NCBI RefSeq assembly: GCF_003704095.1
Contig: NW_020845377.1
Coordinates: 1-64,000, forward strand
Source of the DNA: Pocillopora damicornis
Lineage: Eukaryota
Direction of reading: 5' to 3'
DNA: 64,000 nt
How positions within the stretch are numbered: the first letter of the stretch is position 1; every line of letters starts with the position of its first letter. Below are positions 4,796-9,792 of this stretch, in pieces. A model generated the notes under the pieces. The model had not been told where the DNA came from, made no database searches, and saw only the letters and a list, made by a program, of their open reading frames with translations. The position numbers were made by a program, and so were the translations under genes.

Positions 4796-7405
4796 TCAGT
4801 GACAGAGAATATGACTCCAAATGATCCCTAAGGTCAAAAGTGCATTCACTTGAGTGAAGTATGTTGTTGATGCCGCTGGTGATGTTGATACCGCTGGTTT
4901 TGTTGATGCCGCTGGTGTTATTATGGTGTTTTTTAACGACGTCCCTCTATTGATAATTTCAACGGTACTTGTTCTGGTGGTGAATAAAGTACATCGCGTT
5001 GAGACGAGGTGACGTGATGACGTCAAAGGTGTTACAAGCGTGAAAGGCGAATTGTTATCTATAGCAGGAGAAATAGTAAGAAATTCGTTAAAAGAAAAAC
5101 AGATAAAAAACAGAGACGAAATGATCTGACGAGGAAAAAAGGCAACGAGTTAAATTCCGAACTTTTAAGTTCAGTATTTCAAAGTTTCTTTGTTGGGCCG
5201 AGGTATTTGTATAACAGGTAGCGGCTGTCATTTTCAGGAATTAAAAAGAATCTGTTATAATCAAAGACGATTTTAACAGGGTGTACGTTTTGACTAACTT
5301 CAATGAACGGAAAATTTGAGTGTATTTCTCTCACTTATAATCTCAGTTTTCATTCCATTCCTTCCACGATGACACACGATTATGGTCTACCGTCTTAAAC
5401 TTGTTCAGTGAAAGTTTATTAAAGGAAGTATTAAGGTGAAACATCCCACATTTGACCCAGTGCCTAGAGGGCCTAATTTGTTTTAACATTTTCTCCGGAA
5501 ATGAAAGTCCTTCGCATCGTCGGAATGAACTTCTGGCGCTCTACAGAAGCTTGGTAACATACAATTGCCTTCCGTGTCTATCAGCCGTGACTCGTAAAAT
5601 CACTAGATTGAAAAAAACTGATGATGGGTACAAGACTCATGGAATAGAATCACTAAACTAGATAAGTAAGCTGAGATGTCAGTAAAAAATATGATACACT
5701 TGGGCGAGAGTGAAATGTCCGGTTAAGTTTGTATTAATCTACTTTTTTCAGGGAAATGCCAACTTATGTCAACTTACCACACTGCTTACAGGTCAGCGGA
5801 CACTTTTGCCTTACATGTAAATATACACTACAATGTTCTGCCCATTCGGGACAAGTCGAAATCTCATCCTGACACAGGGCTGATGTCCTATCACCTACAA
5901 AGAGGAAATTAAGGAATTTTTGCAATTTTTAAGTGATTCTGTACTCATTGTCCAACTAGTAAAGACTCTATGGGGTCTTGGAAAGGAGCCCATTTCAGCC
6001 ACAAGGCTCTTTCTATGCGGGTCTCCTCTGATTTAAGAGTTGTAATCTCGTTAATTGGAGTTCGTAAATGGGGTTAGAAAAAGAGAAGAGGTTGTAGGAT
6101 TACCAGAGGATTGCGAAAAAGGAAGGCCGGGGTTCTGTTTGAAAGGAGATGCTTCTGATGTATCAAAAGTAAATTGTCGTAACGAAATCATTCTTTTTCG
6201 TAATCGTATGTTTCGGTCATGCTCTTTCTGCTTATAGTAAAAAAAAAGGTTATCGAATTATGCAACGACAGTTGCAAGAGTCCGCTTGAGTGTCATTAGT
6301 GTGATATAACAACGGAAACTTCACCCAATGGAGCTAAGAGCGTATTTCGTCCACAGTAAAATATAGACACTCTTAAGAGGGTTTTCCTTCCTTTGCCTTG
6401 TATTCTCTGTACGTTTAATTGTTATTATTGTATCGACAAGTCTGTCATTGTAATGGTTTTGTCAGCAGTTAGCTTAAGGCTGTGTGTCTTTCTTCGGTAG
6501 CTTTTCTGATCTGATTTTAGAGTAAACAAGAGTTTGTTTTATAATAAACAACACAAAAGATAAATGCGTTTGAGGCATAAATTTATCTCGAGATAACACA
6601 AAGCTCTCAGTCTTTTTGGCTCCAAGTGATTGGTATTTCTAGCGACTGACTTCAAAAGAATTCCGCACTTTTACTATTTAAATTAAACTATTTCATATGT
6701 TATGGGAAGCCATAAAACTCTCAGTTCATGCCACTACGCGAAAATCTACAGAAAAATGCTCCTAAGACGGGACAAAACTTGTGGCACGAACTGAGAGTTT
6801 TGGAGCTGCTCGTTAGTTCTAACTAAGGTCTGACGCTCGAAACGTCAGCTTTGAAACTCTTTGCGGTGGCCACTTTACGTTATCAACTGAGTTGGTGATA
6901 CTAAATTACACTGTTATACTCTCTCACCGACGCAGCTTGCAACAAAGTTTCTTTAGAAACTTACTCCCCTTGAAACAAAACACAGATTGGTACAATTTGT
7001 GATTTTCAGATACATTCCATGTAAGCCTAGCAAGCCTGAAATTGCTCGGGAATGTGATCCGCCTTTTCATAAACATGAAGTAAGGTCACGAGAAGGAGAT
7101 AACTCTTGCCCGACTTGAAATCTTGACCAAAAGCTCGAGAAAGTCGTACGATAAGTAGTTGCGATATTGATAAATTATCTTCAGACGAGTTCAACAGTCA
7201 GATCTTCATCTTGAGTAGGGAAAGATTTTAAAAAGAGGACAGCACGACAGAGGAAAAATGTGTGGTAAATAAACTTAGGGTGGTCTGCGGAAATGACTAT
7301 GGGCAATTTTGGGGTAAATAAGTATAGATACGTACCTGCCTTTGCTCGTTGGTTCAGAGGATAAATAAAGAATAGCAGGAAGAAGGTAAATTGCGTAAAA
7401 TCCAT
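4796..7405 (-). CDS. ShKT-domain cell-surface protein A (signal peptide + ShKT + Thr-rich stalk + GPI-like C-terminus), 3 exons
   Basis: Exons 7405-7336 (MDFTQFTFFLLFFIYPLNQRAKA), 5894-5778 (DRTSALCQDEISTCPEWAEHCSVYLHVRQKCPLTCKQC; ShK spacing C-x6-C-x6-C-x8-C-x3-C-x2-C), 5058-4796 (T/S/P stalk ending VNALLTLGIIWSHILCH*). All introns GT-AG, phase 1. Confidence 0.85.
6824..6970 (+). repeat. Partial copy of an interspersed repeat with a degenerate Penelope-type hammerhead motif (same family as 36574-36678 and 62236-62445)
   Basis: GCTCGAAACGTCAGCTTT...CGTTATCAACT...ACCGACGCAGC...GTTTCTTTAGAAACTTA matches the 62.3-62.4 kb copy. Confidence 0.7.
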
Positions 7406-8426
7406 GAATTCGATACTTCTGATATAAGTCAGTTGACTTGATAGCTTAATATTCTACCTTGAGCTGAAATTTCCCATGTAAGCTATTTTCAGACAGAAGT
7501 CGAGGTAGTGATGAAGAGTATTATATTTCGAAGGGGTAAATAAAGGTATCAAGGCGCATGATAAGAGCCTGGATCTAGTGTGGTTGCCAAGCCAATGTTT
7601 TCTTGATCAATATATACTTCTGCCTCGCCTTATCTTGGCTTACTCCTCCTTAACTTTTTAACTCTCGGAAGTATTTGAAACGTAACATCTCCATATAGGT
7701 TTGATTTGTTTTGAAGGAAACAAATGATGAGAATTGATAAACTCATCTACTGAACAGTGGTTTGCTTACATATTAGCAAATCCGCTATTTAACTAATCTT
7801 CAGAGTAACTTTACGAGTGACAGTTGTGAGGAAAATTTATAAATAACAAAAATACAAATATAAATAGTAAAATTGTTAACGGAATGGAATTGAAAAAACG
7901 TTTATATGTAACATCAATAAAAGCTGTAAGGGAAGTTCAAATATCATACTTTTAACGGAAAAATTTTACATGATCTGATTTCAGATGTTTAAAAGATTTA
8001 TATCTACCAACTGCTTTGCTTGAGCTTGGTCTAAACGGCGTGTCACGCATTTTCCGCTTTCAGTTTACTATTTATATCAAAAGGTTACTCTATTAATAAC
8101 TCTAATTTTGGATATTCTGAAAAGCAATCCTTTGAGAAACAGATTCCATGTGCAAGCGAGGACAATCTTCAACTGATTAGTGCTGAATGTAATCCGGGAT
8201 TTCACTAATCAAGGACACTTGCGCCTCAGAGGCCAAACTAAACCCAAACGTGCCTTGGTTACTTGCGGTTCTGCGTGTCTTAGGCGGCTCACTTATTTTT
8301 TACCGTGTGTTCTCGCGGGTTCTTGATGACAATACCCTTTCTTCTGATTGACTGTTGTGTTTTCTCTGATATTAGTTTCACGACACTTAGTTGAAGTGCG
8401 CTCTCATCTTTTCAATATTATCTCTG

Positions 8427-9792
8427 TCACAAGAATGCATACATCCGTGAGACTGTCAGAATCATCAAGATGTTTGCTGATGATCCAGCTGTTCTGATGG
8501 CAGTATTTTGTTGTTTATCTCCGTCTTCTTCACAAATATTTGGCTCTGACGTATAATCAGTGGTTTCTGTTGGAAGACTGGTGGAGCCTGGTAAAACCTC
8601 CCTCGGGCTTTGAGCCGTGGTGAAGTCATTTAAATTTTGTGTCTGTGACACAAGGTGACTAGCTCGTGTTTGTGTAAGGCTGCATGAAAATGCTTTCGAT
8701 GTTTGCGTTCGAGATGGAACTTGTGATAGCGAAGTGGCGATTTGTTGAGTAGCCAGGCTACCAAGCGCAGCCATCGAACTTTGCAGTGTAGCGAAAGTGA
8801 GCGGTGTAGCTCCGGTGGGTAAGCTTTGCGTTGGAGTTACGGACAACGAAGGATAAATTAAGGCTGTAACGAAAATAGATTAGCTTGATGAGCATACTGG
8901 AAACAAAACCCTAAAAGCCTTACTAAAATCATGCATGCATGATCTTGATAACTGAGCGTGAAAGAAATAACATACCGCATTGATTACAGGTCCGTGGACA
9001 CTGCTTCCTGACGTGGTCGTAACTACCGCAGTAACTTACATGATCAGAGCACTGGTCATGTTTATCTTGACATAGTGGTGCTGAAATAATAAAACACTAT
9101 TTTAGAACCTATTTAAAAGGATAAATGTCAAATGCACAAAGGGAAAATGATTTTTCAGATTTTATCGCGAGGCTATGGTTTCGAGGCAACCTTGCAAAAA
9201 ATTCCAGTGAAACAAAAGAAATAAAAAGCTTGAGGATATTTCTACGCGCGCTATTTGTACTGCATTGACGCAAAGTTGAAAATATTGGGAAAATCTTTCC
9301 GAGTGGGGCGAACAACCCGCCTACTTCTAAGAAATGTCGAAGTTATAGAGGAAGAGGGACTTCCCTTAATTGTGTCATCAGGTTTCCTTTCGGAACATTG
9401 TTATAATCGAGTCAATTAACAATGCATGTCCACTTATGGTATCGATTGTTACAGTAATTCTGTCGTAACGATCGCATTTTTACGAGTTTGATGAAACTGC
9501 GAAAAATCCCCATTATGACAGTTTTTTTTATCATCGAACCGTCCCGTGCAAGTGTAAATTGTCATTGCATTTACTGGAAAACAAAAGATAGGTAACGGAG
9601 CTGAGACAGGGCGTGAAAAGATTTTCCCAAGAACAAAGAGAAAGTGTATCTTGCTTAGTACGATTATTCTAAACACCACTGGAGATGCATGGATAAAGTT
9701 CGAAATGCGTCTGAAATCTGAGGCTTACCTGCTACTGTGAGGTGAGCTGAATAAAGGGATATTACAAAGAAAGCAAGCTTGGCCAGTTCCAT
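8427..9792 (-). CDS. ShKT-domain cell-surface protein B (signal peptide + ShKT + Ser/Thr stalk + GPI-like C-terminus), 3 exons
   Basis: Exons 9792-9729 (MELAKLAFFVISLYSAHLTVA), 9080-8976 (APLCQDKHDQCSDHVSYCGSYDHVRKQCPRTCNQC), 8863-8427 (S/T stalk ending TAGSSANILMILTVSRMYAFL*). GT-AG phase-1 introns; frame continuous. Confidence 0.87.

Follow-up and report, generated by a model that had tools for sequence, protein, structure and literature searches.

The six-cysteine ShK fold is found in the type 1 potassium channel toxins ShK and BgK and in ShK-like1 and ShK-like2 of Nematostella, and related domains occur in extracellular proteins of other kinds. The nematode ShK-mucins (C. elegans PHAT and Toxocara MUC) are described as parts of a coat or luminal lining, with their ShK domains proposed to bind non-toxically; PHAT and Toxocara canis MUC-1 to -5 consist of a signal peptide, ShK and a Ser/Thr-rich tract with no enzyme domain, most nematode proteins of this kind carry two to four ShK domains and are secreted, and an anchor of the glycosylphosphatidylinositol (GPI) type goes unmentioned in the available text of both papers (PMC2563036, PMC9477421). 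In the coral Stylophora pistillata, a mucin-like calicoblast protein is reported to have two ShK domains and to be possibly secreted into the skeleton matrix (PMC8913943). Damicornin, AmAMP1, digitiferin and aurelin are soluble, positively charged peptides with an ShK-type domain, discussed in a coral setting of mucus and epithelial defence (PMC12496222). Toxin-like domains are also held at membranes, as in the type II transmembrane protease MMP23, which carries an ShK domain (PMC6915110), and in Aeq5-like2 of Nematostella, a membrane-anchored neuronal protein that Sachkova et al. compare to prototoxins (10.1101/2020.05.28.121442). Here we describe two adjacent genes, A and B, of the stony coral Pocillopora damicornis, located between positions 4796 and 9792 of a 64,000-nucleotide stretch of DNA (RefSeq assembly GCF_003704095.1, contig NW_020845377.1, positions 1 to 64,000; hereafter the window), each of which encodes one ShK-type (ShKT) domain carried by a stalk rich in Ser and Thr that ends in a predicted GPI signal. 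We consider the chances about evenly balanced that the products are GPI-tethered, mucin-stalked binding proteins of the cell or mucus surface and not pore-blocking toxins.

Both genes lie on the minus strand and comprise three spliced exons, every intron being in phase 1 with GT-AG ends. Gene A (9792-9729 / 9080-8976 / 8863-8427) encodes 201 amino acids and gene B (7405-7336 / 5894-5778 / 5058-4796) encodes 149, and the two share one layout: signal peptide, a single ShKT domain, Ser/Thr stalk and a short hydrophobic tail with no cytoplasmic part, as the preliminary description of the locus had recognized. In gene A the coding part of exon 1 (9729..9792) supplies the ATG and signal peptide and ends at the phase 1 donor GTAAGC, exon 2 (8976..9080, 105 nt) holds the domain (residues 25-56, six Cys), and the coding part of exon 3 (8427..8863) holds the stalk, with 32% Ser plus Thr, and the C-terminal tail, the stop codon being at 8427-8429. 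The corresponding parts of gene B are 7336..7405 (ATG, signal peptide and phase 1 donor GTACGT), 5778..5894 (117 nt, residues 31-62) and 4796..5058 (stalk with 37% Ser plus Thr, tail, stop at 4796-4798). The signal peptides, judged by hydropathy, are hydrophobic N-terminal exons conserved in the family described below. An alternative signal exon for gene B at 7746-7644 has a higher hydropathy score, yet it is not used in RNA or proteins.

The RNA evidence consists of contigs of 8 runs from 5 studies, out of 22 runs listed. All four junctions (4/4) were seen in these contigs, and the exons of each gene are thus spliced together. The exon 1-2 joint of gene A (9080/9729) is present in 5/8 runs (X1, X5, X6, X7, X8) and its exon 2-3 joint (8863/8976) in 6/8 (X1, X4, X5, X6, X7, X8). 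For gene B the exon 2-3 joint (5058/5778) is present in 4/8 (X1, X2, X5, X6; depth 2 in X1 and X6) and the exon 1-2 joint (5892/7334, cut +2) in 1/8, X5 only, as well as in the proteins P0020-P0022. A splice-joined protein with two ShK domains was rejected, as no joint links the coding exons of A and B in the 8 runs, an absence that in contigs is weak evidence. Contigs from two studies (X1, X7) end at position 9871, although contigs cannot show a start; the TATAAA on the minus strand at 9894..9899, 28 nt upstream of that position, is weakly indicated as a candidate TATA box of gene A.

The preliminary description had placed the two ShK exons correctly, and the cysteine motif it quoted for them matches letter for letter on the minus strand. 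Its description of a hidden pair applies to the list of open reading frames only: the two exons are contained in open frames 55 and 54 amino acids long, and A and B have RefSeq counterparts. The gene A protein (P0003) is identical to XP_027044366.1 / pdam_00020729 of P. damicornis, which bears the UniRef name 'ShKT domain-containing protein', and gene B differs from XP_058970136.1 of P. verrucosa at 7/149 positions and from two Logan proteins at 5-6 positions.

Against Pfam ShK (PF01549) the exons score 27.4 bits (A) and 27.0 bits (B) and the full proteins 22.9 and 27.0, all above the curated cut-off of 20.9, and the Pfam search found no other family in either protein. The relatives P0026, P0027 and P0038 gave no Pfam match at E 0.01. 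An AlphaFold2 model of the A domain, from an 18-row alignment, reached a predicted local distance difference test (pLDDT) score of 88. When it was compared with 48,161 chains, all 11 matches at Z>=2 were ShK-type or CRISP cysteine-rich domains (Z 2.7-4.9, root mean square deviation (rmsd) 1.1-2.9, 32-34 residues). The Brugia ShK-like peptide 2mcr ('BmK-type') came first (Z 4.9, rmsd 1.1, 33 aligned), followed by aurelin (Z 4.7) and MMP23 (Z 4.1), with scores that are tied and of modest size, in keeping with a length of 35 residues. Foldseek returned nothing at E<=0.001, with matches only at E 2.5-6.6, and single-sequence searches of the PDB gave nothing significant; the family profile searched against PDB sequences found the channel-modulating domain of MMP23 as its best match (E 0.0026). 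In the ESM Atlas there was no usable feature match for P0003 or P0026, and all structure rows had TM<0.3. As modelled, the domain of A and B has the ShK fold. ShK is very common in this genome, with at least 150 matches (150/150 scored above the cut-off, of 255 candidates), so that possession of the fold is by itself a poor guide to toxin-like action.

A HMMER search of 1.84 billion representatives gave 25 matches at E<=0.001; 22 further proteins were examined and 10 clusters looked up. Full or near-full members, with signal, ShK, stalk and tail, are Stylophora pistillata XP_022794897, Orbicella faveolata XP_020628790, Desmophyllum pertusum KAJ7372773, P0035 and P0038, together with a tail-bearing fragment, P0037, and the coral-like metagenome loci L006 and L007/L010. 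A phase 1 donor, GGTAAG or GGTAAT, follows the last Cys in all genomic loci with the domain (9/9), and a tenth, L007, is spliced there. Gene A is 63-65% identical to the Stylophora protein; the figures for the Orbicella and Desmophyllum members are 40% and 42%. Identity between A and B is only 24%, and because A is so much closer to its Stylophora orthologue, the A/B duplication predates the split of Pocillopora and Stylophora. Judged by these identities, A and B are old paralogues of a stony-coral family. In a tree of 8 members only the grouping of Pocillopora A with Stylophora A was well supported, B formed a long branch, and no deeper order of duplication received support. When the genome was searched with the A exon, P0035 and the tail of B, no third stalked paralogue emerged among the candidates scored, which are a lower bound; the other matches were ShK exons belonging to trypsin, astacin and a further multidomain gene, and none of the 5 loci scanned showed a stalk or tail match. 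The Orbicella protein (P0026), a member of the ShK-stalk family without any Pfam domain at E 0.01, is named 'probable glycosidase CRH1'; the name is probably a mis-annotation by way of the Ser/Thr stalk. At L002:1501-1617 (G000:C2576), an ShK exon whose loop is of a similar Y-x-H form follows a Cys-rich exon of another domain, with no family stalk or tail found nearby.

The proteins of A and B resemble the nematode ShK-mucins in their order of parts, but they carry one N-terminal ShK domain, a stalk and a predicted GPI tail, and no homology is shown beyond the domain; no nematode mucin occurs among the named matches of the family search (10/25 looked up). With the mucin-like protein of S. pistillata they have in common a coral origin, an extracellular location and the joining of ShK to mucin. 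The difference from its two ShK domains and possible matrix destination is drawn from its description, and that protein is not among the sequence matches to the A/B family.

Across the family the stalk is 46-124 amino acids long with 31-45% Ser plus Thr (14 sequences measured). The stalk of A cannot be aligned with that of B (blastp E 0.10-0.17; a second alignment covers the ShK region only), in line with the earlier remark that the two were not obviously alignable, although the tails can be aligned throughout the wider family. Conservation extends over the last 25-30 residues, in which small residues in a row are followed by a polar spacer and a hydrophobic end of 13-16 residues with no cytoplasmic tail, and the gene B tail is 50-61% identical to the Orbicella and Desmophyllum tails over 23-24 residues (E ~5e-6 to 1e-5). 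We scored this arrangement with a rule of our own, written after the tails were seen and not a trained predictor, which asks for an omega triplet of small residues, a polar spacer and a terminal hydrophobic stretch. It recognized 9/9 members with full tails, compared with 2-10% of shuffled post-domain sequences, 0/11 other ShK-containing hits and 25/655 random frames of the window. By this rule the predicted GPI signal of gene A lies at 8430..8507 (minus strand; candidate omega Asn176, spacer, 14-residue hydrophobic end with one Arg) and that of gene B at 4799..4876 (minus strand; candidate omega Ala124-Ser126, spacer, 15-residue hydrophobic end). On an insertion-energy scale applied without positional terms, the best 19-mer of family tails sums to +2.3 to +7.5, compared with -2.0 to -5.0 in four neighbouring type I transmembrane segments. 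A type I transmembrane anchor was ruled out by the positive energy and the lack of a basic cytoplasmic tail. The conserved tail supports, without proving, a GPI anchor in the A and B family, and the surface tethering claimed for the pair stands as a rule-based prediction, with tails too weak for a transmembrane helix.

The same tails may be read differently, as belonging to a secreted, unanchored ShK-mucin like PHAT or Tc-MUC whose hydrophobic end is a helix for self-association or matrix binding. They are only moderately hydrophobic (KD11 1.45-2.9), their sequence (Q/T-N-x-L...G-x-x-x-S, a pattern kept in the family) is more conserved than is usual for GPI signals, and the known ShK-mucins are described as secreted (PMC2563036, PMC9477421). 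The small-residue triplet, spacer and terminal hydrophobic stretch nevertheless stand in GPI order in 9/9 members, and we regard an unanchored mucin as improbable. What is new in this analysis is the placing of A and B in a stony-coral family in which a signal peptide and one ShK domain are followed by a diverging stalk and a kept GPI-like tail.

Variation within Pocillopora is concentrated in the domain. Among 5 full-length A sequences (from a cluster of 86 members, 15 listed) and 4 B sequences, with one stalk insertion not counted, 12/64 domain positions vary compared with 15/286 elsewhere (Fisher p 0.001). The varying domain positions all fall between Cys1 and Cys4 and spare the cysteines. 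Relative to the window, RNA contigs differ at 10/601 bases of gene A exon 2 and at 104/8793 of exon 3 and the untranslated region (recurrent single nucleotide polymorphisms, not independent), so that the exon for the domain varies at least as much as sequence that is mostly untranslated. Noticed after the fact, this domain-focused variation hints at diversifying selection without testing it.

In the favoured explanation of A and B as tethered binding proteins, the signal peptide would be cut right before the ShK domain, leaving the domain at the N-terminus, and the tail would be exchanged for a GPI anchor. The stalk, if O-glycosylated, would form a stiff spacer from which the domain would project into the cell coat or mucus to serve as a binding module, likely akin to that of the nematode ShK-mucins. 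There it may bind an outside partner, either a microbial surface or a protein of the matrix or a neighbouring cell, through the face between Cys1 and Cys4, where the Pocillopora sequences differ from one another. Cleavage of the anchor could shed the protein into mucus. By analogy with other coral ShK genes the source cells are most likely gland or epithelial cells; the ShK genes of S. pistillata are reported mostly from cnidocytes and gland cells (PMC8913943), and the available main text of the Stylophora cell atlas does not name the gene A orthologue (PMC8162421). A bolder version makes the proteins GPI-anchored, single-ShK stalked receptors with a head under diversifying selection for microbial or self/non-self recognition, or else the first GPI-tethered ShK-fold prototoxin tuning the coral's own channels; we hold it to be rather unlikely.

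The dyad and charge of the domain bear on whether it acts on channels. The canonical Lys-Tyr dyad is absent, as had been noted earlier: in the profile alignment the BgK Lys-Tyr falls on [N/H]-[V/I] of the family consensus between Cys3 and Cys4 (x1-2-Y-D-[N/H]-[V/I]-[R/K]-x-x), and A and B read His-Val. Of 39 distinct related domains, some of them ShK domains from outside the family, none (0/39) has Lys or Arg at the BgK lysine position; Asn is commonest there, and His and Asn alternate even within Pocillopora. The net charge of the domain, His not counted, is 0 in A and -1 in B. The domain directly follows the signal peptide and is followed by the stalk, with no propeptide or dibasic site beside it, whereas the ShK-like toxins and neuropeptides of Nematostella are described with both (10.1101/2020.05.28.121442). 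The proteins of A and B thus share the six-cysteine fold of ShK, BgK and ShK-like1/2 but differ from them in lacking propeptide, dibasic site and Lys-aromatic dyad at the BgK position, in their neutrality and in having a stalk and tail.

The preliminary description had offered an endogenous channel modulator like lynx1, or a surface ligand. The second fits best. For the first, an anchored ShK domain would bind a coral potassium channel or receptor in the same membrane and tune its gating or trafficking. MMP23, Aeq5-like2 and lynx1 are precedents in that a toxin-like domain is held at the membrane; lynx1 itself has a three-finger fold and no stalk. Besides the ShK fold, the PDB match to MMP23 points this way, and MMP23 is reported to act without the canonical dyad (PMC6409789). 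ShK-like and membrane-anchored toxin-like genes are described as neuronal in Nematostella, and the prototoxin comparison made for Aeq5-like2 provides a further precedent, although this protein has another Cys frame and an N-terminal transmembrane segment (10.1101/2020.05.28.121442). Some members, moreover, have the invariant Tyr with Lys or Arg nearby. The empty BgK lysine position with its His/Asn toggle and the neutral charge argue against a modulator, a stalk of 46-124 residues would raise the domain well above a pore at membrane level, and a conserved Kv pore as partner leaves the domain-focused variation unexplained. We consider a modulator of this kind unlikely.

The charge and the absence of processing sites likewise bear on a precursor of a shed defensive peptide, whether a toxin or an antimicrobial like damicornin or AmAMP1, which would be kept at the membrane until its release into venom or mucus. 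In its favour, ShK domains occur in coral antimicrobial peptides (PMC12496222), aurelin is the second structural match, many ShK genes of S. pistillata are reported from cnidocytes and gland cells (PMC8913943), and domain-focused variation would fit an arms race. Such peptides, however, are described as acting by cationic attraction (PMC12496222), while the domains of A and B have a net charge of 0/-1, sit on a stalk and have no propeptide or dibasic cut site beside them. A recent survey of coral venom, in its available text, reports no ShK neurotoxin matches in its species (PMC12745922). A shed peptide is to our mind a doubtful proposition.

Several observations weigh against the favoured account of tethered, non-toxic binding proteins. 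Its anchor is predicted by a post hoc rule, and the gene A tail is the weakest of the family, with an Arg inside its hydrophobic end (Trp in Stylophora) and a spacer that is short. The full-length model is of low confidence (pLDDT 43) and uninformative. In the comparison of Pocillopora with Stylophora it is the domain that shows the greater conservation (23/32, against 69/119 in the stalk), and the excess of variation within Pocillopora comes from 9 sequences of possibly mixed species, found post hoc and with no synonymous-site control. Stylophora, Orbicella, P0038 and P0045 carry Lys or Arg directly before the invariant Tyr, which in several relatives makes a non-canonical basic-aromatic pair possible. 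As the case of MMP23 indicates, the dyad is not necessary for channel action (PMC6409789); nor is it sufficient, judging from an Oulactis peptide (PMC5793123).

Exon 1 of gene B sits, on the same strand, within the 3' untranslated region (UTR) of gene A (6843..8426, minus strand), which reaches at least 6843. Contigs of X2, X6 and X8 run unspliced from the last exon of gene A across gene B exon 1 down to 6843, and one X5 contig passes from gene A through B exon 1 into the spliced B exons 2-3. In one run the stretch 6843-8426 is treated as B intron 1 and spliced, and in others it is read through, consistent with same-strand nested transcription or read-through. A sequence scan found no AATAAA between the gene A stop and 5420, and an ATTAAA is present at 6419. 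Because 12 ATGs separate the gene A stop from the gene B ATG, gene B most likely has its own promoter within the 3' UTR of A, a matter that contigs alone cannot decide. That B is instead a spliced by-product of A's long 3' UTR and not an independent gene seems very improbable to us. The position of its first exon, the X5 contig and the single run with its exon 1-2 joint would suit a by-product, but a contig across two genes proves no single transcript, the intact frame of 149 amino acids with its six Cys, signal peptide and tail is kept in three other Pocillopora sequences, and gene B is a RefSeq gene in P. verrucosa. In all RNA runs, contig depth rises thousands-fold and loose ends are numerous over a high-copy short interspersed repeat at 6818-6940.

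A literature search that left out most subscription papers found none of six accession terms and no published description of a single-ShK, stalked, GPI-tailed family, although supplementary tables may list the genes. ShK-mucins, the membrane-held ShK of MMP23 and a membrane-anchored neuronal toxin-like protein are already known, and A and B have database models; as ShK is moreover a common module, nothing is overturned. If the proteins are anchored, this ShK architecture is conserved from Pocillopora to Orbicella and to the deep-sea, non-symbiotic Desmophyllum. A small, synthesizable domain with natural variants offers a way into the function of the many ShK domains that are not toxins, and the family is a warning not to count genes of this type as coral toxins.

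Further along the window, on the plus strand, are three genes for surface proteins with ApeC, CUB, a stalk and a transmembrane segment, a neighbourhood that speaks for the account of A and B as surface proteins. An ShK exon of the enzyme-fused type lies upstream of ApeC, CUB, a Ser/Thr stalk and a true transmembrane segment (28734-28844, 29466-30179, 30788-31351, 31503-32165), and these exons likely form a type I ShK-ApeC-CUB surface protein. Further ApeC, CUB, stalk and transmembrane genes occur at 20333-23054, 41190-43844 and 45609-46091 on the same strand. ApeC transcripts are reported to mark an immune cell type of Stylophora (PMC8162421). The CUB exons at 42704-43111 and 45609-46091 (plus strand) are near-duplicates of each other, through either a tandem copy or an assembly duplication near N gaps. 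Another stalked surface protein is present at 13997-15225 (plus strand), where a Cys-rich exon without a Pfam match precedes a Ser/Thr stalk, a transmembrane helix and a basic tail. An alpha-L-fucosidase gene at 54421-61597 (plus strand) has in its first exon about 500 residues of highly basic, Lys/His/Ser-rich sequence between the signal peptide and the catalytic domain. On the other side of gene B, the window contains a single-exon G protein-coupled receptor of the rhodopsin family at 1325-2245 (minus strand) and, at 2600-3412, an array of short imperfect tandem repeats that encodes repeated peptide motifs in several frames.

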